A stretch of 42,857 bases of DNA from a virus. Positions 4,532-37,784 of the stretch are shown here, piece by piece. Numbering within the stretch: the stretch's first letter is position 1; each line of letters begins with the position of its first letter. Below the pieces are notes generated by a model, which had not been told where the DNA came from, searched no databases, and saw only the letters and a program-made list of their open reading frames with translations. The DNA lies in IMG/VR virus record IMGVR_UViG_3300025006_000006, positions 1-42,857 of that record; one strand, given 5' to 3'. A program made the position numbers and the translations under genes.

Positions 4532-4534
4532 GGC

Positions 4535-12704: not shown

Positions 12705-12717
12705 GGTGTAAGTCTCC

Positions 12718-18751: not shown

Positions 18752-18753
18752 GG

Positions 18754-19889: not shown

Positions 19890-20275
19890 CCGCGCTGTTT
19901 CTCACGGGTGGCCGGTGCAGTTCCATGCGCGCATGTGCCGCGGTGGCGGGCGGCGATGCGCTGCACCTGGGTGTGGCTCATGCACATGCGCCGCGCGATT
20001 TCGCGCTGGCTCACGTCCTGGTCGAGCAGCGTGGTGATCATGTTTTCCAGCGTGGGGCCACCCAGCGCGTTGAAGAACGTGCGCCGCGATGGCACCCACA
20101 CCGCGCCGTTGCCGAATTCGTCCAGCACCACCATCAGCGCCTCCAGCCCGGCACGCTGGGCGATCAGCAGCCACAGCTCCTGCGTGGTCGATGGGTGATG
20201 CACGGCGGCCGCGTCGAGCAACTGGCGTTCGAACGCGGTCGGGGCCTCACCCGGTCGGGAGAACACTGGATCCAT
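19886..20275 (-). CDS. HTH DNA-binding protein (possible terminase small-subunit-like DNA recognition component), 129 aa
   Basis: It has a C-terminal HTH-like segment, DVSQREIARRMCMSHTQVQRIAARH. Confidence 0.5.
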   Translation of the reverse strand: MDPVFSRPGEAPTAFERQLLDAAAVHHPSTTQELWLLIAQRAGLEALMVVLDEFGNGAVWVPSRRTFFNALGGPTLENMITTLLDQDVSQREIARRMCMSHTQVQRIAARHRGTCAHGTAPATREKQRG

Positions 20276-21419
20276 GGCGCTTCCTCTCGAGGTCTTGGGC
20301 CCACAGGGGCAGGTCGTCGGGCACCGTGCCCAGCGCGGCGTGCTGGCGGTGCGCTTTCAGCGTGTAGCGGTTCATGCGGTTGCTCACCGCGAGGTAACGG
20401 CGCGTGGTTTCGATGGACTCGTGGCCCATCAGCACGCGGATGCGCTCGATGTCGGTGCCGTCGTCGTAGAGCATCGTGGCGAAGGTGACGCGGAAGCGGT
20501 GCACGCCCCAGCTGCCCAGCCCGGCGCGGCGCGCGGTGCGCTTCACCACGTCCTCGATCGCCTTCACCGTGACCGGGCCGCCCTTGATGCACAGCCCGGG
20601 CCGGCCGCCGCGCGACAGGTTCACGAAAACGCTGTCGGTGCACAGATCCGGCACACGGCTGCGCGCTTCCAGCCAGCGCAGCAGCTCGCGCACCACCGGC
20701 CCCTCGATCGGCACCGTGCGCTCCTTGCTGCCCTTGCCGAACACGTGCACTTGGCCCTTGCGATCGCTCGCCAGGTCCAGCTGGTGGACGCGCAGCTCGG
20801 TGATCTCCTCGCGCCGTAGACCGGCCGCGAGCAGCAGTAGCAGCATGGCCCGGTCGCGCTGCACGATCAGCTCGGATGTGCCCTGCTTCACTGCCGCGAA
20901 CAGCGCGCGGAGCTGCGCCACGCTGTACTTTTTCGCCTGGGTGATCACCCGCTTCGGCGCCTTGTAGCCGCGCGTCACGTCCACGCCATCGCCGCGGGTG
21001 GCCAGGTAGCTGTACAGGCTCCGCACGGCCATCAGCGCGGACCGCCGTGCCGAGGCCGACAGCCGGCGCTTGACGTACAGCCATTTCTGCCAGTCGTCGA
21101 GCTCGCGCACCGTGATTTCGCGGAAATCGTGGCCAGCTTCCTCGGCCCAGCCCATGAATCGCGCCACGGCTTCGACGTAATCCGCCACCGTGGTCGCGCC
21201 GCGGAACCCGCGCACCACCACCAGGCACTGCACCCACAGCCAGCACGTCGCCAGCCAGCGCGAATCGCGCCACGGGCGCGCCTCCACCGCCCGCATCGCC
21301 GACGCCAGCGGCCCACCCTGCCCCAGCAACGTCGCTCGCAGCTGCGCCTCCTGCGGCGGTAGCACCAACCCGGCCGGAATCGGCGGCACTTCAACCACAG
21401 CGCACCCCCTCGCGGCCAA
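20247..21419 (-). CDS. Tyrosine recombinase 1 (XerC/D / phage integrase family), up to 390 aa
   Basis: Motifs seen: AGLRREEITELR (Arg I), GKGSKERTVP, HRFRVTFAT (H-x-x-R) and GHESIETTRRYL (catalytic Tyr). The track start at 21419 is TTG. The first ATG is at 21296. Confidence 0.85.
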   Translation of the reverse strand: MAARGCAVVEVPPIPAGLVLPPQEAQLRATLLGQGGPLASAMRAVEARPWRDSRWLATCWLWVQCLVVVRGFRGATTVADYVEAVARFMGWAEEAGHDFREITVRELDDWQKWLYVKRRLSASARRSALMAVRSLYSYLATRGDGVDVTRGYKAPKRVITQAKKYSVAQLRALFAAVKQGTSELIVQRDRAMLLLLLAAGLRREEITELRVHQLDLASDRKGQVHVFGKGSKERTVPIEGPVVRELLRWLEARSRVPDLCTDSVFVNLSRGGRPGLCIKGGPVTVKAIEDVVKRTARRAGLGSWGVHRFRVTFATMLYDDGTDIERIRVLMGHESIETTRRYLAVSNRMNRYTLKAHRQHAALGTVPDDLPLWAQDLERKRHGSSVLPTG

Positions 21420-21461
21420 AAACCAAAAACGCTCCCCATTTTTCGAGGCCCCACCAGGTTA

Positions 21462-21516
21462 GGGGTCGGGCGGCATGCCCCCCTGCTTTTGAGGGGGGGT
21501 GTCCTGCACCGACCCC
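21462..21516. repeat. Nested inverted repeats
   Basis: The outer pair is GGGGTCGG (21462-21469) / CCGACCCC (21509-21516). The inner pair is CCCCCCT (21478-21484) / AGGGGGG (21492-21498). Confidence 0.8.
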
Positions 21517-21580
21517 AGCCGACACCCCGTAGGCCGCGCCAGCACTGGGTTTCAGGCATTCGGCATCCGGGTTCTTTGTG

Positions 21581-21600
21581 GTCTCACCGTAGCGTGAGAC
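21581..21600. repeat. Hairpin GTCTCAC-cgtagc-GTGAGAC
   Basis: A perfect 7-bp stem with a 6-nt loop, read directly. Confidence 0.8.
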
Positions 21601-21701
21601 TGGAAACGAGCGCGAAGCGGGATGGATGGCGTCAGCTCGCCGTTCCGGCGGTGGATAACTCAGGCTGGGACTAGCGGAGAGAACAACGGTTAGGCGAATG
21701 C

Positions 21702-22316
21702 TCATGGGGAAATCCCGAGGGAAACAGCGATCTGGCGCCGTATCTCGGCCACAGCCTCAGGCTCGTGCCCAGGCGGAATCGGGCGATGGACGCGCGATGG
21801 CAGTGCCTGCCTGATCGGCTCAGCGAGGGTTTCACCTCGCGCCAGGCGATCGAGGGCAGTGCGGTACGCCACGTCGAACGCCGTGCGCACCGCTCGCTCG
21901 TCGAGCGTGCGCAGGTTCCACGTGCCAACCGATCGCGCTGCGGCGCCGATGGCTGGATGCGTGAACTCGTGGTCGGTGTTGCGCGACCAGGCCAATGCCT
22001 CGCGCAAAGCCTGCTGCAGATCCGGCGCCGATGGCCGGCACAGCGCAATGAACTCCTCGTCGCTCGGTGGCCAACCCGTGCCCACCTTCGACAACGCCGC
22101 CAGCCCCAGCTTGGTCGCCTCGGCTGAAACGCCAGCAGCGCGCAGCGAGGCAAACCACACACCGCGGGCATGCGGATCCTCGAACCTGTCTCGCCAGCGC
22201 TGGCCGTACTTGCGCTGGAAGATCGCGAACACCTGCGCCACAGCCATGCGCAGCGCCTGGTCCTCAGCGAGTGCCGGCGAATTCGCGGCTGAGCTGATCA
22301 CCTCGCTCATAGCCAC
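21702..22316 (-). CDS. Replication protein, lambda P-like (helicase loader family), 204 aa
   Basis: It aligns by eye with lambda P. VAQVFAIFQRKYG...WPPSDEEFIALCR matches INGVFSQLLATF...LPSPGQFVAWCR. RLARGETLAEPIRQALP matches RINRGEAIPEPVKQLP. Confidence 0.7.
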   Translation of the reverse strand: MAMSEVISSAANSPALAEDQALRMAVAQVFAIFQRKYGQRWRDRFEDPHARGVWFASLRAAGVSAEATKLGLAALSKVGTGWPPSDEEFIALCRPSAPDLQQALREALAWSRNTDHEFTHPAIGAAARSVGTWNLRTLDERAVRTAFDVAYRTALDRLARGETLAEPIRQALPSRVHRPIPPGHEPEAVAEIRRQIAVSLGISP

Positions 22317-23127
22317 CTCCGGTGTTGGTGTTGGTTTCAGCCGTTGCCGGCACGCCGGCGATCACGTCGTCGACGAAGCACGCGAGGAACCCCAGGTTCA
22401 CCGGGTGCTGACTGCGCTGCTGTTCGCGTTTCCGCTTGGCCCGGCGCATGGCCTCGGCCAGGTTGGCATCGGTGAGCCCGTGGGCCAGCCACTCGGTCAG
22501 CTTGCCGCGGTTCATCGTGCGGATGCCGATGTGCGCCGGGATGCCCTGATCGGCTACCCACGCCCAAAAACCACCGGCATCAATGATCGCGCCCGCCTGC
22601 TCGCGCACGGTGCGCGTAGTAGGTGACTTTAGACTTGGGTTACCAGAATCTGCAGAAGCATCGGAGAAATCGCAGTTGCTCTGCTCTTTCTCCTCTGTGG
22701 GAGTTACTCCGTTACGTACGGCGTTAGTCACGGGAGTAACGCCGTTATTATCAGGTCGAGCAGCAGCGGCGAGTGCCCGCTTCAGCTTCTCACGATGCCG
22801 CCTCTGCCTGGCCGCGTTGGTGGCGTCCAGCTTGACCGGCTGCTTTTCCAACCAGTCGCTTATCTCGCCGTCGACAATCAACCCGCGATCGCGGATGGCG
22901 TCGACCACGGCCGTGATCTGCTCCAGGCGCCAGCCCGTGAAGTCGGCCAACGCGTGAGCATCGAACGAGGTCACCATGCCCCTTGGCGAGGCCTTCGAAG
23001 CACACTCCTTGAGATACCCCCACACCACGAAGACGTGGCCGGGCGTAACACCGTTACCGGCAGCGCGCGCCACGCCAAGCCAGCGCGGATCGCAGACCTC
23101 GCCGTGATATTGACGGAACCAATCCAT
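22264..23127 (-). CDS. Replication initiator, lambda O-like by position and internal iterons, 287 aa
   Basis: It lies immediately upstream of the P-like gene. It contains repeated DNA units that encode NGVTP three times. It overlaps the P-like gene by about 50 nt. Confidence 0.6.
   Translation of the reverse strand: MDWFRQYHGEVCDPRWLGVARAAGNGVTPGHVFVVWGYLKECASKASPRGMVTSFDAHALADFTGWRLEQITAVVDAIRDRGLIVDGEISDWLEKQPVKLDATNAARQRRHREKLKRALAAAARPDNNGVTPVTNAVRNGVTPTEEKEQSNCDFSDASADSGNPSLKSPTTRTVREQAGAIIDAGGFWAWVADQGIPAHIGIRTMNRGKLTEWLAHGLTDANLAEAMRRAKRKREQQRSQHPVNLGFLACFVDDVIAGVPATAETNTNTGGGYERGDQLSREFAGTR
22699..22748. repeat. Iteron cluster (putative ori) inside the O-like gene
   Basis: The units are GGGAGTTACTCCGTTAC (22699-22715) and GGGAGTAACGCCGTTAT (22732-22748). 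An inverted core ACGGCGTTA lies at 22718-22726. The cluster is followed by the short A/T stretch ttattatc. Confidence 0.6.
23041..23057. repeat. Third iteron-like unit GGGCGTAACACCGTTAC
   Basis: It matches the 22732 unit at 14 of 17 positions. A fourth core, CACGCCGTTAC, lies at 23387-23397. Confidence 0.5.
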
Positions 23128-23379
23128 CAGCGCGTACCCGCCGCTGAAAGCGCTGGGTCATGCGCGGCGCATCCCGACGTGGCAGGATGGCAATGCGAGG
23201 CGGCAAGCCCCGCAAGGCGCTGTGCAGAAAAGACTTCCCACATGAGGCTCGTCCTGAGCCGGTGCGCGAACTGATCCTGTCAAACTGTATATTATGTAAA
23301 GTCGCGCCAGATTCGGCGGGTTTTACATCGGAATCAGACGCTTACCGGCTTTCGATGGGTCCACTTTTGGACCCGATGT
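23128..23379. promoter_or_regulatory. Most AT-rich intergenic region; divergent control region and possible att site next to recombinase 2
   Basis: It contains tcaaactgtatattatgtaaag. An inverted repeat ATGTAAA (23294-23300) / TTTACAT (23322-23328) is present. A hairpin GGGTCCA-cttt-TGGACCC lies at 23357-23374. Confidence 0.5.
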
Positions 23380-24453
23380 GTGATACCACGCCGTTACAGT
23401 CAAATGCATCTGCCTGCTGGCAAGGGCGAGCTGCTGCATGTGGATTCGCAGGATGCGCTGGCGCGGTTTGCGCGCATCCTGTCGGGTAGTCGGGCGCCCA
23501 CCACGGTTCGGCTGTACGTGGGCGTGGTGCGTCGGTGGCTGGCTTACGGTGGAGCGGCAGACCGGCTCGATGCCGCCCTGCTGCAACGGTGGTTGAGCGA
23601 TCGTCGCCGGCAGCACGCGGCGCCGGCGACGATCAACGTGGATATCAAGGCGCTGCGCGCGTTCTACGACACCATGGCGCTGATCGGTGCCGCTCCGCAA
23701 GCAGAATCGAATAATTGTCCAAAAGGGCGGCGCGTGCCGGTGCGCCTGGTGCGCTGTTTCAGCGACGAACAGGTGCTGGCGATGCTGGCGGCTCCCGATG
23801 TGTCCACGTTCGCCGGCTACCGCGACAGCGTGATGATGCGCACGCTGTGGGAAACCGGCCTGCGCGCCAGCGAGCTGATCGGGCTGGGCCTGGGCGACGT
23901 GCTGCCCGATGCGGTGTACGTGGCGTCCGGCAAGGGCGGGCGCAGCCGATGGGCGCCGATCAGCGCGGAGCTGCACGCCCTGCTGGTCGGCTACATGGCG
24001 CTGCGCGCCACCACGCGCCCCGGCAAGCGCGCCGCGCTCTGGGTGACGGATGCCGGCCGCGCCCTGCGCAGCCGGCGCAGCGTGTGGGCCATCGTGAGCC
24101 GCTGGGCGCGCGCCACGCTGGGCAGTGCCGTGGGTTATGACCGGGTGCGCCGGGCGGCGCGCCAGCGGCCGTGGAGCGGGCAGTATCCGCACCTGCTGCG
24201 CGCCAGCATGGCTACCACCCTGCTCCGCCACGGCTGTCCCCTGCCCGCCATCATGCAGATGCTCGGCCACACCAGCCTCGATAGCACCGCGCGCTATTTG
24301 GCCGCGGACATCAGCCATTTGCGTGCAGCGATCGACAAGCATCCGCGCAACCATCGGTCAGCCCGCCCTGTCGAGTCGACCACGCCGGCGGGCGCGGCGG
24401 GATCCAGCGATCCACAGGGGGGAATCGGGCAAGCCGCGGAGCCCGACCAGTAG
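23380..24453 (+). CDS. Tyrosine recombinase 2 (XerD/integrase family), 357 aa (GTG at 23380; first ATG at 23404)
   Basis: Motifs seen: TGLRASELIGL (Arg I), GKGGRSRWAP, HLLRASMAT (H-x-x-R) and GHTSLDSTARYL (Tyr). It is the only plus-strand gene inside the minus-strand early operon. Confidence 0.85.
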   Translation: MIPRRYSQMHLPAGKGELLHVDSQDALARFARILSGSRAPTTVRLYVGVVRRWLAYGGAADRLDAALLQRWLSDRRRQHAAPATINVDIKALRAFYDTMALIGAAPQAESNNCPKGRRVPVRLVRCFSDEQVLAMLAAPDVSTFAGYRDSVMMRTLWETGLRASELIGLGLGDVLPDAVYVASGKGGRSRWAPISAELHALLVGYMALRATTRPGKRAALWVTDAGRALRSRRSVWAIVSRWARATLGSAVGYDRVRRAARQRPWSGQYPHLLRASMATTLLRHGCPLPAIMQMLGHTSLDSTARYLAADISHLRAAIDKHPRNHRSARPVESTTPAGAAGSSDPQGGIGQAAEPDQ

Positions 24454-24681: not shown

Positions 24682-24935
24682 TCGTCATCACCAAAGGCAG
24701 CGAACGGGTCCATTTCCGTTTCCGGGTCGTGGCTGGTGTGTTCGTAGCCCTTGGCGAGCTGGAACCAGTCAGCGTCGATCCAGCCGCCAAGGTCGGGCAG
24801 CACCTTGAACATCACGCCCGATTGGCAGTGAGCGTCCACGCGCCGCGCCGTGATCACGTGCAGGCTTTCGCGGCCGTGGTCGTAGGTGGTGCTCACGTGG
24901 GCGCCGGGCTCGAGCTGGCGGCTGGCGTGGGTCAT
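24678..24935 (-). CDS. Hypothetical protein, 85 aa (MTHASRQLEP...)
   Basis: The ATG at 24935 overlaps the methyltransferase stop (ATGA). The longer track ORF is rejected. Confidence 0.5.
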   Translation of the reverse strand: MTHASRQLEPGAHVSTTYDHGRESLHVITARRVDAHCQSGVMFKVLPDLGGWIDADWFQLAKGYEHTSHDPETEMDPFAAFGDDE

Positions 24936-26830
24936 GCAGCCCTCGCGTAGAACTCGATCAGGTCGGCCAGGTCGTTGGCTACCTCGGCCGCCGCCATGTC
25001 CGGGCAGACGCTGTTGCCGATCAGGCGCACCTGGTCGGTCTTGGTGACCTGGCGCCACTCGTATTCGCCGCTGCCTGGTGCGGTTTCGAACAGGCCTCGG
25101 TCGATGATGTAGCTGTCGGGGAAGCCCTGCGCCCGGGCGAGCTCGCGCGGCACCAGCATGCGCAGCGTGATGTCGGCCAGCACGTAGCCGCCCAGCAGCA
25201 CCATGCCGGCGGGATCGGGGAAGTGCTCCGGCAGGTACTCGTGCAGGAAGTCGGCCACCGCCTTGGCGCGTTCGCGCAGCTCCGGCGCCAGCGTGTCGGC
25301 CGGCACCTGCACGCACTGGATCAGGCCCATGCGGTCCTTCGTCGGCACCGTGTGCATCGGCTCGTCGCAGCCCTGCCACTGGCCGCCCTCGCCGTAATAC
25401 TTGACCAGGTAGGCCGACACCAGCCGCTGGTTGGCTCCGCTGGCGCAGATGGTCGACACCGGATCGCGCAGGTCGCGGCCGTCGCCGTCGTAGAAACCGC
25501 CGTTGGCTTGCTCAAGGAAGGAAGAAATCACGCCGTACCGCGTCGCGCCGGCGAGGGCGGTTTGCATGGGTTCGCGCAGATCACTGCCTTTGGCGTTCTG
25601 GCCGAATGCCGTGATGTGCGCCGCGACCAGCGCATGCTTCACGCCACCAGCCACCACCGTGCCCAACGGCTTGCCGATGTCCAGCGCGCGCGGTTCTTGC
25701 CCTTCGCGCTCGCCGTAGCCGGTTTGCACCAGCGTCGGCGCCACCAGCGAGAAATGCCCGCCCTTGATCTGCGCCACCTGCGTGCGCAGCGGCTCGTCGG
25801 CCGGGAACACGCGCTGGCTGCTGCTGTTCGCGTGCTCGGTCAGGTAGGGTGTGACCAGCGCGTGGTGCGTTCCGCCGCCAGTCACCGTGCTCAGTGGCTG
25901 GCCGAGGCCGTGCGTCGACGTGTGTCCGCCGCTTGTGCCGCGCAGCGGCACGATGAACGGCTGCGGGCAGTTCAGCACGTAGCGCCACATGCCTTTCGCG
26001 ATGCGCTTGAGCGTATTGGTCGCCAGCGGCTTCTTGCGGCCGAAGATGGAGCGCGACGGCAAGGTGAAGTCGATGCACTCGGCGGCGGTGCGGTAGGGTT
26101 TCAGCTTGCCGGACGCCACGGCTTTGCTGTCCTGCGCCGCATGCGTGTCAGGGCTCCAGGTGATCGGTCGGCCGTCGCGGCGGAACTTGATCACCAACCG
26201 TTTGCGGATGGTCTTGGCGCCCTTGTCGCACGCCCGGATTTCGCGCCAGTCGGCGGTGTAGCCCAGGCCGCGCACCAGCGCCGCGCGCGGCACCGCATCG
26301 CCCAGGAACTCCACGATCTCGTCCATGGCGGGGTGGTCATCGGCCAGGCCTTTGGTCATCACGTCGATGAACGCCCGGAACGTCTCGCCCTTGCGCTCAA
26401 CGATCGCGCTGCCGCTGTCGTCCAGCGGGCACCAATGGATGAACTCCTCCACGTTCTCCATCTCGATCACGCGCGGCGTGGCGAAGTAGCCCCAGCGCAC
26501 CACCACCCACGCCAGCCCGCGGATGCGCTTGCTGCGCGGCGCCTTGCCCTTGGCCTTGCTGTGGTGCCGGCAGTCCGGCGATGCCCACAGCAGGCCAACC
26601 GGCCGGCCGCGCGTGGCCGCCAGCGGGTCGACCTCGAATACGTCCGCCTGGTAGTGCTCGGTGTGCGGGTGGTTGGCGCGGTGCACGGCGATGGCGATGG
26701 CGTTGTGGTTCACTGCCACGTCGGGCTCGCGGTAGGCGCGGGCGATGCCGGTGGATGCGCCGCCGCCGCCGGCGAACAGGTCCACCACCAGTTCCTGGTC
26801 GAAGTTGAGGAAGGCGGTCCCGTCAGCCAT
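24932..26830 (-). CDS. DNA (cytosine-5) methyltransferase, 632 aa, with an unusually long variable region
   Basis: Motif I is DLFAGGGG and motif IV is SPDCRHHS. ENV is present in EMENVEEF. Motif VIII-like is KTIRKRLVI. The C-terminus has AQGFPDSY and LIGNSVCP. The ATG is at 26830. Confidence 0.9.
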   Translation of the reverse strand: MADGTAFLNFDQELVVDLFAGGGGASTGIARAYREPDVAVNHNAIAIAVHRANHPHTEHYQADVFEVDPLAATRGRPVGLLWASPDCRHHSKAKGKAPRSKRIRGLAWVVVRWGYFATPRVIEMENVEEFIHWCPLDDSGSAIVERKGETFRAFIDVMTKGLADDHPAMDEIVEFLGDAVPRAALVRGLGYTADWREIRACDKGAKTIRKRLVIKFRRDGRPITWSPDTHAAQDSKAVASGKLKPYRTAAECIDFTLPSRSIFGRKKPLATNTLKRIAKGMWRYVLNCPQPFIVPLRGTSGGHTSTHGLGQPLSTVTGGGTHHALVTPYLTEHANSSSQRVFPADEPLRTQVAQIKGGHFSLVAPTLVQTGYGEREGQEPRALDIGKPLGTVVAGGVKHALVAAHITAFGQNAKGSDLREPMQTALAGATRYGVISSFLEQANGGFYDGDGRDLRDPVSTICASGANQRLVSAYLVKYYGEGGQWQGCDEPMHTVPTKDRMGLIQCVQVPADTLAPELRERAKAVADFLHEYLPEHFPDPAGMVLLGGYVLADITLRMLVPRELARAQGFPDSYIIDRGLFETAPGSGEYEWRQVTKTDQVRLIGNSVCPDMAAAEVANDLADLIEFYARAA

Positions 26831-27629
26831 GCGCCCTACTCCCCGCCAGCAGATCCACGAACCACGGGGTGTGTCCTGCCGGCAGCTTGCGTAGGTCGAC
26901 GTGGATCGCGTGGGTGATGATGAAGTTGCGCAGTGCCTGGTTGGTGACGCGCCAGGGCGCTCGGCCGTCCGGGGTTGGCTGGTGGGTGGGGTCGCGTTCG
27001 GCGGCGAGCATGCCCAGGTGGATCCAGCGCGTGACGGTGGTGGGATCGTGGCCGAGCAGGCTGGCGACCTCGCGGGCGGTGTAGTCGTCCTCGCGCGGGT
27101 CGCGCTGGATCGCGCGGCGTTTGCGTTGCACGACAATCGCGGCTTCCGTGCGGCGGAAGCCCTGGCGCCGCAGTGCGTGTTGCACACCGGCGGGCCGCAG
27201 GTTGCGGGTGGCGCGCAGAATATCCAGCTCCGCCGGGCTCCACGGCGCCTCGCGGAAACGCGGGGTGGTAAGGCCAAGGTCACGCGCCCGGCGGCTCACC
27301 CACCACACCGGCCGCGCCAGGCGCTTGGCCAGCGCCACCACGTCGCCCCGCTGCATCGGGCGCTGATGCGCGGCGCGGATGGCCTCGTCCATGCCCGGCT
27401 CCAGCGTCCACGACTCGCGCACCAGCGGCTGGCTGGCGCAGCGCAGGCCCAGCGCGTTGGCATGCTGGTAGATCGCCGATCGGCTGCGGTGCGGCAGCAG
27501 CGCGATCACGCCATTGATGCCGCCCGCCGGGTACGTCTCGCGCAGCACGCGGATCTCGCGCGTGGTCCAGGCCGCGCGGCTGATGGGCTGGGCGTGCGGC
27601 GTGCTGATGGAAGCGGTGCCGTCAGGCAT
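26823..27629 (-). CDS. DNA-binding protein with repeated Myb/SANT-like segments and a C-terminal MerR/excisionase-type HTH, 268 aa
   Basis: WTTREIRVLRETY and WSPAELDILRATR are repeats. The HTH is YTAREVASLLGHDPTTVTRWIHLGML. Confidence 0.5.
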   Translation of the reverse strand: MPDGTASISTPHAQPISRAAWTTREIRVLRETYPAGGINGVIALLPHRSRSAIYQHANALGLRCASQPLVRESWTLEPGMDEAIRAAHQRPMQRGDVVALAKRLARPVWWVSRRARDLGLTTPRFREAPWSPAELDILRATRNLRPAGVQHALRRQGFRRTEAAIVVQRKRRAIQRDPREDDYTAREVASLLGHDPTTVTRWIHLGMLAAERDPTHQPTPDGRAPWRVTNQALRNFIITHAIHVDLRKLPAGHTPWFVDLLAGSRAHG

Positions 27630-28464
27630 GGGGCGCCTCCTCGGACTGCTCCAGCGCGTCGGCGAGGGTTGGCTGATCGTGCTGCACGCCAGGTGTCCAG
27701 TCGTAGCTGTCCAGGCTCACCAGGAAGCGCAGTGCCATAGCGGCAGCCTGTTGTGCTTCCTTGCGCACGTCGTCGGGCTTGTTCTTGTGCGGCTCATAGA
27801 CCTGTTGCAGCACCGCCTTCGACAGCTCGCCGGCTTCCTCGTTGAAAACGCCGACGGCGTGCAGCGGATCGGTCGGCCACGTCGGGAACTTGCGGATCGC
27901 CTTTTCCAGCTCGTCCATGACTTCGCGGACGACAGCCGGCACCCTCGCGCGCTCGGCGTTGGCTTTGGCTGCATCCCAGCCAGCGTCGTTCGGTGGCTGC
28001 AAGTCGCAGTTTGTCTGCGCCGGCAAGACTGACTCGCCGCGCTGGTGCAGGAACATGGCGAAGTTGCCCACGTCGCGCGGGTCGCCCTTTTCGACATGCG
28101 CGCGAAGCATGTCCGACAGCCGTTGCTGCATGCCCGGTTCGTCGTTGTTCCAGCCGCTGCGACCCTTTGCGCGAGCCTCGGCCAGTTTGGCCTTGAGCGC
28201 AGCGGCGAAGCGGTCAACGGCGGCATCGTCCGGGTGCGGGATACCCTCCCCCTGCGCGTTCTGCGAATCAAGTTCAGCGTTGACCATCTGCTCATACTTC
28301 GCCTGATCGTAGCCGCGACGAAACGCATTGCCGTGAGCCTGCGCGTTCTGCGCGAGGGCGTTACGGGCTTCATCGACGGCGTCGCAAGCTACGGTCGCGC
28401 CCAGCTGTTGGAGCAGTGTTTGCAGGCAGCGAAGCTTCCCATCCAGTGTGGCCTTTTCCATCAT
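27622..28464 (-). CDS. MazG-like nucleotide pyrophosphohydrolase-domain protein, 280 aa
   Basis: The C-terminal segment FPTWPTDPLHAVGVFNEEAGELSKAV...VRKEAQQAAAMALRFL is an EExxE-type MazG signature. The start MMEK is at 28464. The track extension to 28797 overlaps rdgC and is rejected. Confidence 0.6.
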   Translation of the reverse strand: MMEKATLDGKLRCLQTLLQQLGATVACDAVDEARNALAQNAQAHGNAFRRGYDQAKYEQMVNAELDSQNAQGEGIPHPDDAAVDRFAAALKAKLAEARAKGRSGWNNDEPGMQQRLSDMLRAHVEKGDPRDVGNFAMFLHQRGESVLPAQTNCDLQPPNDAGWDAAKANAERARVPAVVREVMDELEKAIRKFPTWPTDPLHAVGVFNEEAGELSKAVLQQVYEPHKNKPDDVRKEAQQAAAMALRFLVSLDSYDWTPGVQHDQPTLADALEQSEEAPHA

Positions 28465-29381
28465 GCATCCCCCGGCCGCGGCAGCCCGAACACCTCGGCC
28501 AGCTGCTCCAGCAGGCGGCGCAGTTCGGTGGTCATCAGGAACAGGGCGGCGGCGGCTTCGTCGTGGGCGTCCTGCAGGCTGTCGCCCAGCGTGTCCAGCA
28601 CCACGTCGAGGAAGCGCAGCTTGTGCAGCACCAGGTCTTCGCCCAGCACGAAGCTGATACGGTCGTCGTAGACCAGGCCCAGCTTGAACACCTGCTTGCC
28701 GCTGCGCAGGTGTTCCTTGACCTCCTCGGCGTCCATGTCCTGCCGGCGGGCACGGATGACGGCGCCTGCGGCGGTGGCGGGGTCGCGCAGTTCGCACTCG
28801 TCGCCCAGGGCGAAGCCGGCCGGCAGGCGGCCGGTGGCCAGCCAGTCGGTCAGCAGCACGCGCGGGCCTTCCTCCGGTGCCGGCGGCACGGCGGGGAAGC
28901 TGCCCAGCGCCTCGCGCCAGCAGGTGAGCACGGTGTCGGCCTGCTTGCGGCTGGCGGTGTCGATCACCAGCCAGCCGTTGGCAATGTCGGCATAGGCGGC
29001 GGTGCGCGAGCTGCGCACGAAGGCGCGCGGCAGCAGCTCGGTCAGCAGATCTTCGCGGATGCGCTTTCGCTCGCGGCCGCCGACGTTGCGGCCTTCCTGC
29101 TCGGTGATCTGGCGCACTTTGCGCTGCAGGGCATCGGTGAGCACGGCGGGTGGCAGCAGCTTGTCTTCGCCGCCCAACACGGCCAGCGTGCAGCCGTTCT
29201 CGGTAAGCGTGAGGCTATCCCAGCCGTCAGCGCGCCCCACCGGCGGCACGAAGCCGCGGGTGAACAGCTCCAGCGGGCCGCAGGGGCGCAGGCGGTAGTC
29301 GTCCAGCGCCTCGTCCAGGCGCTGCAGGTCGTCGGCCACGGCGGGCGAGAATCGGAACAGGGTGAGGTTGCGGAAGAACAT
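28461..29381 (-). CDS. rdgC: Recombination-associated protein RdgC, 306 aa
   Basis: It is collinear by eye with E. coli RdgC. MFFRNLTLFRFS matches MLWFKNLMVYRLS, PCGPLELFTRGFVPP matches PCGSQDMAKMGWVPP, and LLPRAFVRSS matches LLPRAFSRFS. Confidence 0.85.
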   Translation of the reverse strand: MFFRNLTLFRFSPAVADDLQRLDEALDDYRLRPCGPLELFTRGFVPPVGRADGWDSLTLTENGCTLAVLGGEDKLLPPAVLTDALQRKVRQITEQEGRNVGGRERKRIREDLLTELLPRAFVRSSRTAAYADIANGWLVIDTASRKQADTVLTCWREALGSFPAVPPAPEEGPRVLLTDWLATGRLPAGFALGDECELRDPATAAGAVIRARRQDMDAEEVKEHLRSGKQVFKLGLVYDDRISFVLGEDLVLHKLRFLDVVLDTLGDSLQDAHDEAAAALFLMTTELRRLLEQLAEVFGLPRPGDA

Positions 29382-29384
29382 GGC

Positions 29385-29630: not shown

Positions 29631-29653
29631 GGTGGGTTCCTAAGCGGTAGTGG

Positions 29654-29899: not shown

Positions 29900-29901
29900 G
29901 C

Positions 29902-31297: not shown

Positions 31298-31677
31298 GCT
31301 GCCGCCCTGCGCGAGCGCATGTAGTCGTCGTCGAACGGCAGGCCTTCGGCAACAAGCTCCTCGATGATCTGCGCGCCAACTTTGTCGTGCACAGCGCGCG
31401 GCATCTTGAATCTGACGGAATTAACGCACCGCTCGTGTTCGATCACCTCGCCACGCGCCACCAGTTTGCGCAGGTGCGCCCTGGCGGCGGCCACCGAGCA
31501 GCCTGCGGCAGCCCCGTAATTCCACGAATAAAAACTGGACAGGTGGAAAGTAAAGTCGTCTGGCGCGCGGCGTTTAATTGTGCGTTGGCCACCGACATAG
31601 GTGGTTTCGAACACCCAGCGGATGGCCCTTTTGTAAGCGCTCAATGCGTCAGCGCGGATCGCGTCGAGGTCGTTCAT
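31294..31677 (-). CDS. Hypothetical protein with a winged-helix-like segment, 127 aa (MNDLDAIRAD...)
   Basis: The internal ATG at 31677 overlaps the recombinase 3 stop. The wHTH-like segment is AAARAHLRKLVARGEVIEHE. Confidence 0.5.
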   Translation of the reverse strand: MNDLDAIRADALSAYKRAIRWVFETTYVGGQRTIKRRAPDDFTFHLSSFYSWNYGAAAGCSVAAARAHLRKLVARGEVIEHERCVNSVRFKMPRAVHDKVGAQIIEELVAEGLPFDDDYMRSRRAAA

Positions 31678-32639
31678 CCCGCCCTCCTCACCGCATCCAG
31701 ATCCGCGTGTTCGCGCAGCACGTGGCGCACCACGGCGGCGGCTTGCGCGCCGTAGACATTGGCGGTGGTGGATTTCTTGGCGTGGCGGGCCAGGTGCTGG
31801 CCGGCTTCCAGGCCCAGGGTTTCCACCACGTCGCCCACGCGGCGGTGGCGCAGCAGTTGCGGGTTGAGGTGGGCGATGCCGGCGGCGGCGCCCAGGGTGC
31901 GGATGCGGTTGTAGGCCTGCTGGCGGGTGATGCGGGTGCCGCGGTTGCTCACGAACATGGCCTGCTCGCGCTCGGCCGCCATCGCCGGGCGCACGGCCAG
32001 CCAGTCGGCCAGCCACGCCACGCTGCGCGCGTTGATCGGCACCACGGCCGGCTTGCCGCCCTTGCCCACCATGCACAGCTCGCCGCGCGCCAGATCCACG
32101 CTGTTGCGCGGGCGATACACCGGGCCGGGCAGGTCCAGCGCGGTGGCATCGCTTACGCGCAGCGCGCCATCCAGCATCAGGCGCATCATGGCGCGGTCGC
32201 GCAGTTGCATCGGCGTGCGCGTGGGCAGGGTTTCCAGCAGCGCCATCAGCGGCGCCAGCTCCGGCGCGATCTGCGGCAGCGCCACGAAACGCACGTCGCT
32301 GTCTTTCGTCGGGTCGTGGTGCAGCCAGCCCTCGCGGTTGGCGTGCGCCACCAGTTGGCGCAGCACCACCAGCTTGCGCGCCTGGCTGCGCGGGGAAAGC
32401 CCGCGGTGGCCCAGCCGATCCAGCCAGCGTTCCACCAGGCGTTCGCCCAGCAGGCCGATCAGCTCCACGCCCTGCAGCGCGGCAAACTCGGCGAAGTCGT
32501 GCAGGTCGCCGCCGTAGGCCACCAGCGTGTTGATCGCCGCGCCGCGCAGGCGCTTGCGCTGCAGGTAGTGTTCGATCGCCTGCGCCATCGTCACGGGCGC
32601 CACGGCGTGGCCGGCCAGGGTGATGAGGTTGGCGGTCAT
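31674..32639 (-). CDS. Tyrosine recombinase 3 (XerC/D-like), 321 aa
   Basis: The start is MTANLITLAG at 32639. It has an N-terminal SAM-like core-binding pattern (AINTLVAYGGDLHDF). Motifs seen: GALRVSDATAL (Arg I), GKGGKPAVVP, LLRHRRVGD (H-x-x-R) and HAKKSTTANVY (Tyr). Confidence 0.8.
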   Translation of the reverse strand: MTANLITLAGHAVAPVTMAQAIEHYLQRKRLRGAAINTLVAYGGDLHDFAEFAALQGVELIGLLGERLVERWLDRLGHRGLSPRSQARKLVVLRQLVAHANREGWLHHDPTKDSDVRFVALPQIAPELAPLMALLETLPTRTPMQLRDRAMMRLMLDGALRVSDATALDLPGPVYRPRNSVDLARGELCMVGKGGKPAVVPINARSVAWLADWLAVRPAMAAEREQAMFVSNRGTRITRQQAYNRIRTLGAAAGIAHLNPQLLRHRRVGDVVETLGLEAGQHLARHAKKSTTANVYGAQAAAVVRHVLREHADLDAVRRAG

Positions 32640-32848
32640 GGCTGGTCCTCGCCGGTGGTGTCGGCAGGCATGTCGCTGCGGTCGATCCATTCCATGAGCC
32701 GCGCGGTCAGCCAGTAGCAGAGGCTGGCAAGCCCGATAAGGAAGGCGAACAGGCAGAGCAGGACCAGGGCGGCCACCCAGCCGCCGACGCAGTACATCGC
32801 GGCGGTGTAGCCGACCAGGGCGAGCGGGATCAGCGTGCGGGTCTTCAT
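32636..32848 (-). CDS. Small two-TM membrane protein, 70 aa
   Basis: The sequence is MKTRTLIPLALVGYTAAMYCVGGWVAALVLLCLFAFLIGLASLCYWL. The ATG is at 32848. Confidence 0.55.
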   Translation of the reverse strand: MKTRTLIPLALVGYTAAMYCVGGWVAALVLLCLFAFLIGLASLCYWLTARLMEWIDRSDMPADTTGEDQP

Positions 32849-33138
32849 GCGCCACCGCCCGCGCGCTGCAGCGTCTCTTTCAGGGCCACCATGGCGCGCT
32901 CGCACTCCAGTCGCTCGGCGGCGCCGAAACCGTAGGTGGTGCCTAGTTTCTCGAAGGCCTTGATGACGCGGTTTCCCGCTGCCACCAGTTCATCGGCCAG
33001 GCCCAAGCTATCGGCGGCACCCTGCAGATGCATTTCGCACAAGCCGGCATGACCAGGTGCTTCCATGGCCCGGAACTGCTTGGCCGACTCACTCAGCGCG
33101 TGTTGGCAGCCTTCGATCGTCGTTCGTAGCGTCGTCAT
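32845..33138 (-). CDS. Hypothetical helical protein, 97 aa
   Basis: It is a complete ORF with an ATG start and ATGA coupling. Confidence 0.5.
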   Translation of the reverse strand: MTTLRTTIEGCQHALSESAKQFRAMEAPGHAGLCEMHLQGAADSLGLADELVAAGNRVIKAFEKLGTTYGFGAAERLECERAMVALKETLQRAGGGA

Positions 33139-33269
33139 CGGGCACCGCCCAAGCTGACCACGATCAGCGCGACGAGCAGCAGAAGGCAGGCGACGACGGC
33201 GAAGCCGGCGCCCAAGGGCAGCAGCTCGGCCGGCGGCGCGCCGTGGCGGCGTTCCGTGCGGCCGCTCAC
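33135..33269 (-). CDS. Very small single-TM protein, 44 aa (GTG start)
   Basis: The GTG at 33269-33267 overlaps the upstream TGA (GTGA). The C-terminus is LLPLGAGFAVVACLLLLVALIVVSLGG. Confidence 0.4.
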   Translation of the reverse strand: MSGRTERRHGAPPAELLPLGAGFAVVACLLLLVALIVVSLGGAR

Positions 33270-33457
33270 GACGCCACCGCCCGCAGCTGTTGCTGCAGCG
33301 AGTGCCACAGGCGGCGTGCGGCCTGCTCGGCCTGCGCCTGGTTGTTGAACAGGTTGCCGGTGCGGGCTTTCAGCGCGCCGCTGGTGCCGATCACCTGGCC
33401 GCGCCATAAGCCGCCCTCGCGCTCGCCGTGGAAATAGACGTCCATGGGTTTTTTCAT
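33266..33457 (-). CDS. Hypothetical small protein, 63 aa (MKKPMDVYFH...)
   Basis: The internal ATG at 33457 overlaps the upstream stop. Confidence 0.5.
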   Translation of the reverse strand: MKKPMDVYFHGEREGGLWRGQVIGTSGALKARTGNLFNNQAQAEQAARRLWHSLQQQLRAVAS

Positions 33458-33741
33458 GCGCGTGCTCCCGGCGCGTACCAGGCGGGTCGGAACCGTTCGC
33501 CGGCCAGGTCGCCCGCCATCAGCCACAGCGACGGCACGGCCAACACCTTGGCCATGGCGCCGATCTGCAGCGGGTCCGGCGGCGTGCTGCCGCCCATTTC
33601 CAGCGAGGCCAGCCGTTTGGGGGTGATGCCGGCGGCGGTGGCCAGATCCTCCGGCGCCATCCGGGCGTGCTCGCGCGAGGCGCGCAGGCGCTGGGCGAAG
33701 CTGTCCGCGTGGGCGTTGTGCTGGCGGGTCTCGGCGCGCAT
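33454..33741 (-). CDS. XRE-family HTH protein, 95 aa
   Basis: FAQRLRASREHARMAPEDLATAAGITPKRLASLEMG is a classic Cro/CI-type HTH. The ATG is at 33741. Confidence 0.7.
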   Translation of the reverse strand: MRAETRQHNAHADSFAQRLRASREHARMAPEDLATAAGITPKRLASLEMGGSTPPDPLQIGAMAKVLAVPSLWLMAGDLAGERFRPAWYAPGARA

Positions 33742-34187
33742 CAGGCGAGCCTCCCGCGCGTGCTGGCTTCGCCCGCGATCATCAGCAGGTCGAACACCGC
33801 GTCGCCCACGCTCAGCTTCCAGCCGGGCAGCTCCAGGTTCTTCAGCGTGCCGGGAAACTCCCGGAACGCCGCCACCGCAGCGGCCTGCGCGCCCTTGGGC
33901 GTGATCACCGTGCACACCGGCAGCTCGCGCGAACCCTCGCGCCGCAGCGTTACCGCGTAGCTGCGCATCGTGCCGTGCGCCTGCACCATCTTGTGCAGCA
34001 TGCCGCGCGTGCAGCCCAGGTCCGCCGCCACCGATTTCAGGGTGGCCTTTGCCCGCTTCGCCTCTGCTACCGCTTCGGCTGCTGCCGCACAGGCTTCCGG
34101 TGTGGCCGGTCCCACGTACAGGGGGGGGGTCTGGCGGCGCGTGGTGGTGGCCGCGTCGATGGCCGGGTGGGTGATGGGCGCTTCCAT
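33741..34187 (-). CDS. Hypothetical protein with an HTH-like segment, 148 aa; contains a C9 homopolymer near its 5' end
   Basis: The HTH-like segment is LKSVAADLGCTRGMLHKMVQ. The ATG is at 34187. An alternative GTG at 34115 lies just after the C9 tract. Confidence 0.5.
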   Translation of the reverse strand: MEAPITHPAIDAATTTRRQTPPLYVGPATPEACAAAAEAVAEAKRAKATLKSVAADLGCTRGMLHKMVQAHGTMRSYAVTLRREGSRELPVCTVITPKGAQAAAVAAFREFPGTLKNLELPGWKLSVGDAVFDLLMIAGEASTRGRLA

Positions 34188-34534
34188 CAGCGCGCCCTCC
34201 CCTGCTTGGCCAGGCCGCCGAGGATCAGCGGATAGCCGGGGCGGTGCAGGCGCAGCGCGTCGATCAGGCGCAGCGGCATGCTGGGATACCAGCGCAGCAG
34301 CGCGCATTGCGCGGCGGCCAGTTGGCGGCGGCGCGTGGGTTGGGTTACAGTGGGCATGTCTTCCGTACTCCTAAGCGCGGCGGGCACTTCCGAACGCCCG
34401 GGGTTGCCGCCCCGGGCGTTCTTCGTTTGGGCAGCAGACGCTGCGCTGATGGCCCGGCGGTGGGCGGTGGGGACCGTGGGGAGCGGGAAACCGCGATCCA
34501 CCACCAGGCCATCAGCGAAACGTCCGGCGGTCAT
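34187..34534 (-). CDS. Hypothetical protein, either 115 aa (ATG 34534, ATGA-coupled) or 56 aa (ATG 34357 with a GGAG RBS)
   Basis: Both starts are plausible. The long form would encode through the perfect hairpin at 34392-34421. Confidence 0.4.
   Translation of the reverse strand: MTAGRFADGLVVDRGFPLPTVPTAHRRAISAASAAQTKNARGGNPGRSEVPAALRSTEDMPTVTQPTRRRQLAAAQCALLRWYPSMPLRLIDALRLHRPGYPLILGGLAKQGRAR
34392..34421. terminator. Perfect 12-bp GC-rich hairpin GAACGCCCGGGG-ttgccg-CCCCGGGCGTTC (terminator/attenuator or processing site)
   Basis: Read directly. On the plus strand it is followed by ttcgtttggg. On the minus strand there is no U-tract. Confidence 0.45.
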
Positions 34535-34770
34535 TGCATGTAGTCCTCGACGCGGATGGCGGCGATCGCGTCATTGAGCGAACCGCGCGGCAGGCCGTAG
34601 GTTTCGCGCGCCGCCGCCATGGCCACCAGCGCCCGCCGCGCGGCGCGCCAGCGGTACACCGCCGCCAGTCTCGGGCGCCCTTCGCGCTGGGCGGTATCGG
34701 CCAGCACCTGCTGTTCCTGACAGGCATCCGCTGCTGCCGCCATGCCCTTGAAGCTGCGCCCGCGCATCAC
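34531..34770 (-). CDS. Hypothetical protein, 79 aa
   Basis: It is a complete ORF coupled to both neighbours. Confidence 0.45.
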   Translation of the reverse strand: MMRGRSFKGMAAAADACQEQQVLADTAQREGRPRLAAVYRWRAARRALVAMAAARETYGLPRGSLNDAIAAIRVEDYMQ

Positions 34771-35342
34771 TTCACGCTCCGCAGCGGCTGGCCGTCGACC
34801 ACGCCCAGCACGTGCTGGTGGATGCTGCTTTTGAGCGTCACGGCGTAGGCCTGCAGCGCGTCCAGTTCGGCCAGCGCGGCGCTGGCGTGCGCGGCATCGC
34901 CGGCATCCATGCGGCCGTCGTCCAGCATCGGCGCCAGGCGGTTCACGGTGTCGCCCAGGTGGCGCAGCAGTTCGCCCAGCTGCTGTTGCTGGCCGGCGGG
35001 CGTGGGTTGCGGCTGCGGCGCGGCCAGTAGGCCCAGGCGGTGGCTCAGGTCCGCCAGCAGGTGGCTGCGGTACGGCTGCGGCAGCGCGAGGATCAGCGCC
35101 TCCTCGATGTCCACCGCCATGCGCACGCGGCCGTCCAGCATGCGCTTCACCGTTTGCCGGTTGGCCTCGCTGTCGGCGTAGGGGTCGGCGCTGATGGCAA
35201 AGGCCACGCTGCGCGCGTGCAGCGAGGTGCGCTGCAGGTAGATGTCCGCCACCGTCTGCGCGTAGGTGCGCTCGGTGAGCGCGCTGCGGCTGATGGCCAG
35301 CAGCACGTGCTCGGCAATGAGCTGGCTGCGCGACTCACGCAT
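34767..35342 (-). CDS. Hypothetical protein, 191 aa (MRESRSQLIA...)
   Basis: The internal ATG is at 35342, with an 8-nt overlap with the upstream gene. Confidence 0.5.
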   Translation of the reverse strand: MRESRSQLIAEHVLLAISRSALTERTYAQTVADIYLQRTSLHARSVAFAISADPYADSEANRQTVKRMLDGRVRMAVDIEEALILALPQPYRSHLLADLSHRLGLLAAPQPQPTPAGQQQQLGELLRHLGDTVNRLAPMLDDGRMDAGDAAHASAALAELDALQAYAVTLKSSIHQHVLGVVDGQPLRSVK

Positions 35343-35640
35343 GGCCGTGCACCCCGTGCACCAGCGCCAGGTCCATCGCCATGTCGGCGCTGGCCGCCTC
35401 GTAGGCATCGCACACCAGGTCGGGCGCGGTGCCCAGGCGGTACGCGCGCTGGGTCAGCATCTCGGCGATGATCGCGTGCACGCCCTCCACGGTGGCCACG
35501 CCCTCGCGGCGGATGCGGGCGTTCAACGCGCGCAGGGTCATGGCCTCGTGCGCGGTGGCATGGGTCAGGCGCGCAAAGGCGCGGCGCTGGGCCTCATTCA
35601 TCGGCGGCATGCCGTCCGTTTCCAGCTGCAGCTCAGACAT
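35335..35640 (-). CDS. Hypothetical protein, 101 aa (MSELQLETDG...)
   Basis: The internal ATG is at 35640, with an 8-nt overlap with the serine recombinase gene. Confidence 0.5.
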   Translation of the reverse strand: MSELQLETDGMPPMNEAQRRAFARLTHATAHEAMTLRALNARIRREGVATVEGVHAIIAEMLTQRAYRLGTAPDLVCDAYEAASADMAMDLALVHGVHGHA

Positions 35641-36400
35641 GCGTTGAAACCTCCGGGTCAGGCGTGGCGGGGGCGCCGGTGGCAAGCTGAGCCATCGGTA
35701 ACTTGCGGAGCGATTCGTGATGCGTGCGCAGTTCGCGCAGGGTGTTCGGGCTCCACCGGGGTTTGCCGGTGGGGCTGGGGATGTTGCGGGCGGCAAGATG
35801 TGCGGCGACGCTGCGCAGGCTGATGCCGTGCGTCATGTCTTCCACGGCATCGGCGCGCACCGGCCACGTCTCGGGGTCGCGCATCAGCCGGCGGTCGTCG
35901 CCCTCGCCCACTGCCACGCAGCCATACGGCACGTGGCCGTACACCCTGCCCTGCTCGCGCAGCGCGGCGTTGCACTCAGTGGCGCGCTGCACGGCCAGGT
36001 CGCGCTCGTACTGCGCGGCCGCCAGCTGGATGGTCAGGCTGAGCTTGCCGGCCGGCGTGCTGGAGTCGATCAGCTCGCTGATGCTGTGCACGGTGGCGCC
36101 GGTGCGCTCGGCGGTGCGGAAAAACGTGAGGCCGTCCAGCGCGTCGCGGAACAGGCGATCCAAGCGGATCACCACCACGCCCTGCGCGGTGCCGGCTTTC
36201 AGCGCGTCCAGCACCTGCCGGCCCCCTGCCCGCTTGGCCAGCGGCACGCTGGCGCTCACGCCTTCGTCGGCGATGGCGTCCACCAGCGTGTGGCCGTGCA
36301 GGTCGCAGTACGCGATCAGGCGCGCGGTCTGCTGGCCCAGGCTCACGCCATCCTTGGCCTGCTCCTCGGTGGAAACGCGGATGTAACCGACGAGCTTCAT
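35633..36400 (-). CDS. Serine recombinase, 255 aa: resolvase catalytic domain plus part of a large-serine 'recombinase' domain, with no zinc-ribbon/coiled-coil
   Basis: MKLVGYIRVSTEEQ carries the catalytic Ser. VVVIRLDRLFRD is present. GHVPYGC...PETWPVRADAVEDM...GISLRSVAAHLAARNIPSPTGKPRWSPNTL resembles the recombinase domain. The ATG is at 36400. Confidence 0.8.
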   Translation of the reverse strand: MKLVGYIRVSTEEQAKDGVSLGQQTARLIAYCDLHGHTLVDAIADEGVSASVPLAKRAGGRQVLDALKAGTAQGVVVIRLDRLFRDALDGLTFFRTAERTGATVHSISELIDSSTPAGKLSLTIQLAAAQYERDLAVQRATECNAALREQGRVYGHVPYGCVAVGEGDDRRLMRDPETWPVRADAVEDMTHGISLRSVAAHLAARNIPSPTGKPRWSPNTLRELRTHHESLRKLPMAQLATGAPATPDPEVSTHV

Positions 36401-37344: not shown

Positions 37345-37361
37345 AAAATCAGGAGACAGGG

Positions 37362-37766: not shown

Positions 37767-37784
37767 CGTCGCCGCGCGAGCGGG

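Follow-up and report, generated by a model that had tools for sequence, protein, structure and literature searches.

IMG/VR virus record IMGVR_UViG_3300025006_000006 (positions 1-42,857; hereafter the window) encodes four site-specific recombinases and belongs to a family of tailed phages that integrates at the chromosomal dif site through an attP of reversed polarity, using an Xer-like integrase that the phages themselves encode. The assembly is circular and amounts to a complete genome of 42,730 bp, its bases 1-127 being repeated as 42731-42857 (127 nt, 100% identity). Three of the recombinases are Xer-like tyrosine recombinases, designated here A (20247-21398, minus strand), B (23380-24453, plus strand) and C (31674-32639, minus strand), and the fourth, D (35633-36400, minus strand), is a serine recombinase. 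The mode of integration is the new and firm part of this work; the roles of A, C and D are those that we infer. Taken as a whole, our best explanation, to which we give about an even chance of being correct, is that the window comprises the whole genome of a temperate tailed phage whose Xanthomonadales hosts are of the Rhodanobacteraceae type, that its family is large, essentially undescribed and carries four recombinases in its core genome, and that B integrates the phage at dif, probably with an XerD-type partner on the right arm of the site. The original prediction on this DNA had drawn attention to the four genes; the integration target dif, which is the most informative point, was absent from it.

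The attP was located at 23276-23302 (plus strand). It is a simple Xer-type core of about 28 bp, consisting of a left arm CCTGTCAAAC (23276-23285), the centre TGTATA (23286-23291) and an XerD-type arm TTATGTAAAGT (23292-23302). The centre and the XerD arm are copied from dif and the left arm is specific to the phage, so that the crossover region is common to attP and the host dif. This dif-like site is unique in the window, where none is expected by chance. For several relatives the alignment with the window stops at 23300 on one side and starts only at 23286 on the other, and outside these limits there are 145-372 bp of unrelated DNA; this is the mark of prophages in the integrated state whose crossover is immediately upstream of B. 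At the junction on the B side the sequence reads TTAATTTCGCATAA-TGTATA-TTATGTAAAAT followed by phage DNA, and at the other junction the phage CCTGTCAAAC-TGTATA-TTATGTAAAAT followed by host DNA. Beside B, each prophage has a complete dif made up of host XerC arm, centre and XerD-type arm; its far end, next to the O/P-like replication genes and A, has a hybrid of phage arm, centre and XerD arm. The host junction ATTTCGCATAATGTATATTATGTAAAAT matches the dif of E. coli K-12 (GGTGCGCATAATGTATATTATGTTAAAT, beside hipA) at 24 of 28 positions and contains the Xanthomonas dif core TTCGCATAATGTATA, which has been reported for the filamentous phages phiLf, phiLf-UK and phiLf2. The host integration target is dif. 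The phage arm recurs at 16695, but that copy lacks dif-like context and was rejected as a chance match.

More than 15 independent prophage junctions in dif were found in Rhodanobacter, Dyella, Xanthomonas and relatives. The same arrangement, with the full dif about 100 bp upstream of B and the phage arm followed by TGTATA-TTATGT on the A side, recurs in distant family members, and the contig ends of distant relatives carry dif or pseudo-dif. Chromosomal copies in which D and C on one strand and B on the other are followed by the full dif occur in Dyella ginsengisoli, D. amyloliquefaciens, a Chiayiivirga metagenome-assembled genome (MAG), a Lysobacteraceae MAG and Xanthomonas sp.; in a MAG labelled Burkholderiales the A-side gene layout is present and a dif-like site was not found. 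Across hosts the XerC and XerD arms of dif are invariant and the phage arm varies (CTGTCAAAC, CTAAGCCAC, CTAAATCAA, GTAAGCCAA, GCAATCAAA, GTAAACTAA and others). As to the right arm, it differs between junctions in the Xanthomonas-type members (L014/L200 on the A side, L111 on the B side), reading TTATGTCAGAA on the host side and TTATGTAAGAT on the phage side; this difference may help to map the point of strand exchange, or may reflect older elements at the site. In relative L024 a 6.4-kb filamentous prophage (174-6554), with a G2P-type Rep and Zot and with pseudo-dif at both ends, lies directly beside the tailed prophage, and in L083 another filamentous prophage (1066-8222) is bounded by pseudo-dif and dif, with a B-like recombinase gene (29% identity) after the full dif. 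Filamentous and tailed prophages thus stand in tandem at dif, in a mixed array of the classic kind formed by integrative mobile elements exploiting Xer (IMEX).

In the literature that we searched, dif is targeted by filamentous phages, some tailless phages, gokushoviruses and genomic islands, all of them through the host XerCD, and in a survey of Vibrio the tailed prophages use their own integrases at other sites. According to a review of Xer recombination, the CTXphi, VGJphi, TLCphi, GGI and EludIMEX-1 classes keep the XerC arm and the centre and have a divergent XerD arm. The present family resembles IMEX in that it integrates at the chromosomal dif, its attP mimics dif, a functional dif and a defective copy result, and tandem arrays are formed. 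Nevertheless, there are distinct differences. The first is the site: the XerD arm and the centre are kept and the left arm is phage-specific, so that the polarity is reversed and the retained XerC arm of an IMEX attP is not found. The second is the gene content, since IMEX encode no recombinase, whereas here B lies 80 bp from attP and two more Xer-like genes and a serine recombinase are present. The third is that the element is a 42.7-kb tailed phage. These differences bear on a classical IMEX explanation, in which host XerC and XerD would both integrate and excise the phage at its dif-like attP and the phage recombinases would be unrelated or modulatory, like XafT of TLCphi. Such a scheme gains from the near-perfect XerD arm and central region of attP, from the standing of the site as an IMEX hotspot that filamentous phages also use, and from the reliance on host XerCD of every dif-integrating element in the literature consulted. 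It does not fit the presence, in every member, of an Xer-like gene within about 100 bp of the att core together with dedicated regulatory structures, nor the lack in attP of the XerC arm that all described IMEX retain, nor a phage arm that varies freely between relatives, unlike a binding site for a host protein. We consider it quite improbable.

The Xer-like gene beside the core is B, whose product is the integrase in our interpretation. It is a 357-amino-acid Xer-like tyrosine recombinase (PF00589, 7e-22) with a SAM-like N-terminal core-binding domain, a catalytic domain in which R-K-H-R-H-Y is invariant, and an insertion of about 17 residues specific to the family. The gene begins with GTG at 23380, 80 bp from the end of the att core at 23302, runs opposite in strand to its neighbours in a region of slightly lower GC content, diverges from the O-like gene across a 252-bp att region, and is, in the prophages, the first phage gene in from the junction on the dif side. 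The view in the original prediction that none of the recombinases stands in an int-attP arrangement is contradicted by this proximity. Two structured elements separate B from the core. The first, directly after the XerD-type arm, is a terminator-like palindrome, CGCGCCAGATTCGGCGGG followed by TTTTAC (23303-23326, plus strand), which is present in every member with a different sequence in each and could insulate B from read-through across dif. The second is a hairpin, GGGTCCA-CTTT-TGGACCC (23357-23374, plus strand), that ends 5 nt before the start codon of B. A hairpin 5' of B was found in 9 of 9 relatives (at the same position in L013, L080, L081, L094 and L097-L100), with stems that covary and ends 0-8 nt before the start codon; in per-sequence folds its free energy was between -12.6 and -17.2 kcal/mol, 2-4 standard deviations below that of shuffled sequences. 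The hairpin probably controls B at the RNA or translation level, and the palindrome and hairpin together suggest that B is tightly controlled.

The arrangement recalls the integration module of lambda in that a tyrosine recombinase adjoins attP in a genome with cI-, cro- and cII-like regulators and O/P-like genes. It differs in three respects: B has the SAM-like core-binding domain of Xer proteins and no arm-binding N-terminal domain; no conserved Xis-type factor was found in the family; and attP, a simple core, lies between the early operon and the replication and late genes. The only excisionase-like helix-turn-helix (HTH) protein (HTH_17, 26823-27629) was considered as a conserved Xis and rejected, as it is not kept in the family.

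The other recombinases are as constant as B. Scans of viral contigs yielded a family of 40-52-kb contigs, of which 24 were cross-tabulated; A, B and C were present wherever their region had been fetched, and D likewise wherever its own had been. In these contigs the order is constant (D and C, then B on the opposite strand, att, O or O/P, A, the small HTH gene and terminase), and the identity of the recombinases to those of the window ranges between 100% and about 31-45%. All 15 genomes of a fixed set contain A, B and C. For each of A, C and D the protein database holds more than 120 clusters, and where these come from long contigs, the contig mostly measures about 40-45 kb. All four genes lie inside 8.5 kb in L013, a compact relative. 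Analysis of GC3 by frame placed each of the four in a coding frame, with starts that agree with orthologues and with database gene calls. Since presence and order are constant while the methylase and the Xis-like HTH protein vary, the recombinases are core genes of the family and not decayed remnants or cargo. The original prediction had proposed that related prophages be examined for the junction used and for which recombinases are conserved together; the junction is at dif beside B, and the set is conserved in every relative. Its description of four intact recombinases holds, as do the coordinates and strands that it gave, apart from the start of A and one residue of C (see below). The positions are also as described: A precedes the packaging genes, B is next to the replication genes but on the other strand, C is in the middle of the early operon, and D follows cro, to which it is start/stop-coupled. 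Its suggestion of a so far undescribed multi-recombinase system is likewise borne out, as the relatives carry all four with intact residues and our literature search found no paper describing such an arrangement.

This constancy is also what decides against regarding the extra recombinases as remnants or cargo of nested mobile elements, or the phage as a plasmid-like prophage in need of multimer resolution. The opposite strand and slightly lower GC content of the B region, and the variability of the accessory genes around it (the methyltransferase and HTH_17), speak for such a reading. Yet the order and orientation of the four core genes hold even where identity has fallen to about 31-45%, their catalytic residues are intact, and the orthologue alignments ruled out remnants or pseudogenes. 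The plasmid-like prophage, which had been raised in the original prediction, is at odds with the chromosomal integration of the relatives at dif, and no partition genes turned up in Pfam and PHROG scans of the window. Both variants are largely refuted already and seem to us scarcely credible.

A is a 383-amino-acid protein (PF00589, 2e-29) starting at 21398 rather than 21419, with the same length as the database gene call P0001. It comprises an N-terminal extension, a SAM-like N-terminal (core-binding) domain and a conserved C-terminal tail, RQHAALGT-P---P-W; its catalytic residues R-K-H-R-H-Y were identified by alignment with solved structures and orthologues. Its gene, 3.4 kb from attP, immediately precedes the small HTH gene, which the terminase genes follow. 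Of the four recombinases A is the best conserved, yet its putative recognition helix is hypervariable. C is a 321-amino-acid protein (PF00589, 3e-19) encoded in the middle of the early operon, with a SAM-like N-terminal domain and a length similar to that of its orthologues. The Arg/H-x-x-R/Tyr signature that had been ascribed to all three tyrosine recombinases is present in A and B; in C the first His of H-x-x-R is replaced by Gln in the window (P-Q-L-L-R, in PQLLRH). This position is His in 4 of 6 C orthologues and Gln in 2 of 6, and R, K, R, H and Y are invariant.

The best NCBIfam models for A, B and C are XerC, XerD and XerA, all with scores far under the equivalog cut-offs: 136, 126 and 117 bits, respectively, against XerC/XerD cut-offs of 330-335 (116-138 against 279-335 overall). 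Identity to E. coli XerC is 20-28%. Like chromosomal XerC and XerD (and XerH, XerS and XerA), they have a two-domain architecture, R-K-H-R-H-Y (with Q or H as the first His in C) and a dif-type substrate, A and B agreeing with XerC/XerD in both catalytic residues and architecture. They differ from them in being encoded by a phage, in being three paralogues rather than two and in falling under the cut-offs. Other elements are known that carry several tyrosine recombinases, namely RIT ('recombinase in trio') elements and Tn554 with TnpA and TnpB. The family shares with these, and with the gamma-mobile-trio recombinase GmtY, to which A has a weak match (7e-6), the joint inheritance of several tyrosine recombinases in one mobile element. 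Here, in contrast, the genes neither adjoin nor overlap but are spread over 12 kb (5.4 kb in L013) inside a phage genome with B on the opposite strand, and inverted repeats flanking A, B and C, as in RIT trios, were not found in the window.

A, B and C were aligned with E. coli XerC and XerD, and the helix that precedes the AG[IL] turn was compared. In C this helix (ITRQQAYNRIR) resembles that of XerD (MTRQTFWHRIK), and S/T-R-Q is kept in most of the family. In B it reads RSRRSVWAIVS as against ISARNVQKRFA in XerC; all 15 genomes have S-V/I-W, with Arg before it in 14 of them and Lys in the remaining one, and B alone of the three retains the C-terminal HPR motif of Xer. The putative recognition helix of A resembles neither XerC nor XerD. 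In the 15 genomes the pairwise identity of A was 0.34 in the helix and 0.63 in the rest of the catalytic domain; the corresponding values were 0.62 and 0.55 for B and 0.39 and 0.52 for C. These patterns suggest that B is XerC-like and C XerD-like, and that A matches the variable phage arm. The variability of the helices mirrors that of the DNA, in which the dif arms are invariant and the phage arm is variable, and this is the ground for a model with three half-site specificities.

The following mechanism can be proposed. B, XerC-like in its helix and HPR motif, would catalyse integration at dif, and its probable partner on the conserved right arm would be of the XerD type, either host XerD or the XerD-like C of the phage. 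A would be the best candidate to occupy the phage-specific arm, its helix being equally hypervariable; alternatively, given its place before the terminase genes, it may act after circularisation. Together A, B and C may constitute a phage-encoded Xer-like machine, through which integration and excision would be independent of the FtsK-controlled XerCD. The attP lies between the early operon, which runs antisense into B, and the O-P-A-terminase-structural genes. As judged from this gene order, integration would part the early operon (cro-D-cII...C) from O, P, A and the late genes, and excision would join them again. C and D would stay with the cro promoter region in the prophage and could be produced before excision, and A, the replication genes and the late genes would be expressed only after the circle has re-formed. 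In its strongest form the proposal is of a self-contained machine of three specificities: the XerC arm would be recognised by B, the XerD arm by C and the fast-evolving phage arm by A. With such a machine the phage would enter and leave dif without host XerCD, FtsK control or Xis, and D, the first product after Cro, would contribute something more, for instance directionality or resolution. This form is tentative, and we think it unlikely to hold in full.

The same gene positions can be read as those of enzymes that work independently and at different times. Integration would be the task of B alone (helped by host factors) under cII-type control; C from the early operon would drive excision on induction; D would resolve or invert some other site; and A would resolve replication multimers or cyclise terminally redundant DNA at a dif-like site, like Cre/loxP of P1. 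This would account for the place of C and D in the cro operon, where they are still linked to cro in the prophage, for the position of B on the opposite strand, preceded by a terminator-like palindrome and a 5' hairpin of its own, for that of A after O/P and before the terminase genes, and for the lack of a conserved Xis; what points to a P1 Cre/loxP-type role for A is its position, before terminase and 3.4 kb from attP. It leaves the XerC-like, XerD-like and hypervariable helix pattern unexplained, no separate site for A or C was found in the window, and the large terminase has no family match from which to read the packaging mode. We judge it possible, if rather unlikely; it and our best explanation are not mutually exclusive.

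Several points weigh against the assignments proposed for B, C and A. The helix compared is one that we take to be the major-groove recognition helix of the Cre/XerD fold, and the contrast in its conservation is confounded by shared ancestry. Within the subgroup of the window the helix of A differs at about 6 of 13 positions, though the inner phage arm is GTCAAAC throughout. The enzyme working at att has been assigned from sequence, and host XerCD could carry out every reaction there, as they do for IMEX, while the phage enzymes have other tasks. Neither a target for D nor a second site for A or C was found in the window. The GC skew of the short host flanks gave no independent confirmation of the location of the terminus. 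Finally, a sigma-70 promoter scan around attP, B and A gave no match, so that the transcriptional logic set out above is deduced from gene order only.

The fourth recombinase, D, is of a different type. It has 255 amino acids, as in database gene call P0241 (its homologues all have 237-300), and contains PF00239 (1.6e-28) and the first half of PF07508, with the R-x-S nucleophile motif, D-x-G-V-S and R-x-D-R-L-F-R. Its ATG overlaps the stop codon of cro (ATGA), and coupling to a small cro-like gene is found throughout the family. A structure predicted with AlphaFold from 25 homologues (predicted local distance difference test score, pLDDT, 85.6) was compared by Foldseek and aligned with large serine integrases, Bxb1 and phiC31 among them, for about 235-242 residues. 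The aligned part takes in the catalytic domain, helix E and the recombinase domain, and D ends where the zinc ribbon and coiled coil would start. More distant D-like proteins are full-length integrases beside S24-type repressors. The large serine integrases (Bxb1, phiC31, TP901-1 and A118) are thus the best match of D in sequence and predicted fold. D differs from them in length (255 as against 450-600 amino acids, or about 450-700 for large serine recombinases generally), in lacking the zinc ribbon and coiled coil that bind the outer att half-sites and set directionality, and in not being adjacent to the att site used by the prophages. The resolvase-type HTH and the adjacent res or invertible segment of the small serine resolvases and invertases (Tn3, gamma-delta, Gin/Hin) were not found either. 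On the predicted structure, D appears to be a conserved, domain-minimised (half-size) derivative of a large serine integrase, and its role would be resolvase- or invertase-like. An identical 15-mer, TTCATGCGGCCGCCC, is located at 36396-36410 and 36689-36703, over the translation starts of D and cro, the two copies being 293 bp apart.

No substrate for D was found in the window, neither an invertible segment nor res-like repeats, and there was no inversion among about 10 collinear genomes. Repeats, long or short and inverted or direct, were also sought in the surroundings of D, C, A and attP, and none stood out from the GC-rich background. An invertible tail-fibre cassette of the Mu G-segment/P1 Cin type was ruled out as a substrate, the fibre gene, which spans the ends of the window, being a single unbroken frame on the minus strand with no coding on the opposite strand. 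DNA inversion switches, one of the roles suggested in the original prediction, accordingly receive no support: there is no invertible segment, no convincing inverted repeat and no break in the tail-fibre frame, and gene order is identical in the relatives.

The rest of the genome has the layout of a temperate tailed phage, as annotated with Pfam and PHROG. Its GC content is 68% and nearly all of its genes are on the minus strand, in the order tail and tail fibre, endolysin, holin, Rz/Rz1, the divergent cI-like/cro-like pair and the early operon, followed by the O-like initiator, the P-like helicase loader, terminase, portal and head genes. The Cro-like HTH repressor (36397-36696, minus strand) is the first gene of the early operon and the cI-like HTH repressor (36994-37344, plus strand) is divergent from it. 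The early operon includes a cII-like transcriptional activator (34767-35408, minus strand; phrog_4834, 9e-32), which lies downstream of D and is kept in the family, as well as RdgC, a RecA-modulating protein (28461-29381), kept in most relatives, and a large C5 cytosine methyltransferase (24932-26830), which is variable across the family. The O-like replication initiator (22264-23127, minus strand) is transcribed away from attP, and its counterpart in a Xanthomonas relative is a DUF1376 protein; the P-like helicase loader (21702-22316, minus strand) matches phrog_109 (2e-22). Between the latter and A is a non-coding region of 300 bp (21399-21701, minus strand) with conserved sequence blocks, of which CGCCTTACCGTTGTTC, GGGTCGGTGCAGGA-CACCCCCC and CCTCGAAAAATGGG are kept at 70-80% genome identity. 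It has no Rfam match to a known RNA or structured element and does not fold significantly (z-score -0.18), and it might hold the promoter for A and the late genes. Directly after A is a small HTH protein (19886-20275, minus strand), similar to sigma-70 region 4, with a weak match to a 'late transcriptional activator' and kept in the family. Candidates for the large terminase (16862-18949) and portal (14270-16468) were assigned by position and size, both with zero matches in Pfam and PHROG; the structural module is highly divergent. In comparison with relatives at 92-97% identity, two regions are variable: 37345-37784, between cI and the lysis genes, where there is a plus-strand lipoprotein-like open reading frame, and the distal tail-fibre gene (39480-42730/1-845). 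Additional diverged copies of segment 189-582 occur in relatives.

A megablast search found no close relative among cultured phages at the DNA level. The sole deposited genome that we found with the same layout is that of 'Microcystis phage' MACPNOA1 (KY697807.1, L094 in our set), which has the same architecture and the four recombinases at 45-52% identity; its attP, too, lies between B and O. The record names the recombinases only in general terms ('site-specific recombinase XerD', 'integrase' and 'Pin homolog'). The literature search found three papers that mention MACPNOA1, with the name in neither title nor abstract, and none that discusses the layout. A fifth recombinase suggested by the 'XerD' of its tail module (coding sequence 12355-13344) was rejected, as the orthologue in the window is a minor tail protein; other dubious names in the record are a glycerone kinase at the portal position and an 'intermediate filament'. 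Owing to its GC content of 68.3% and to its relatives, which are Xanthomonadales prophages, the Microcystis host label is doubtful.

The findings thus flag a probable mislabelled host in GenBank, and they provide a rule for delimiting prophages of this family, with dif on one side and the phage arm followed by TGTATA-TTATGT on the other. In the literature searched, dif receives islands and small phages that are filamentous or tailless; here it is used differently, by tailed phages of about 42 kb, in Xanthomonadales hosts that include plant-associated and soil bacteria. If A, B and C do divide the half-sites among them, this would be, to our knowledge, the first heteromeric Xer system encoded by a phage. 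It would then offer a natural model for the evolution of new half-site specificities in tyrosine recombinases, for directionality without Xis or FtsK, and for the stability of a large prophage at a site where XerCD acts at every division.

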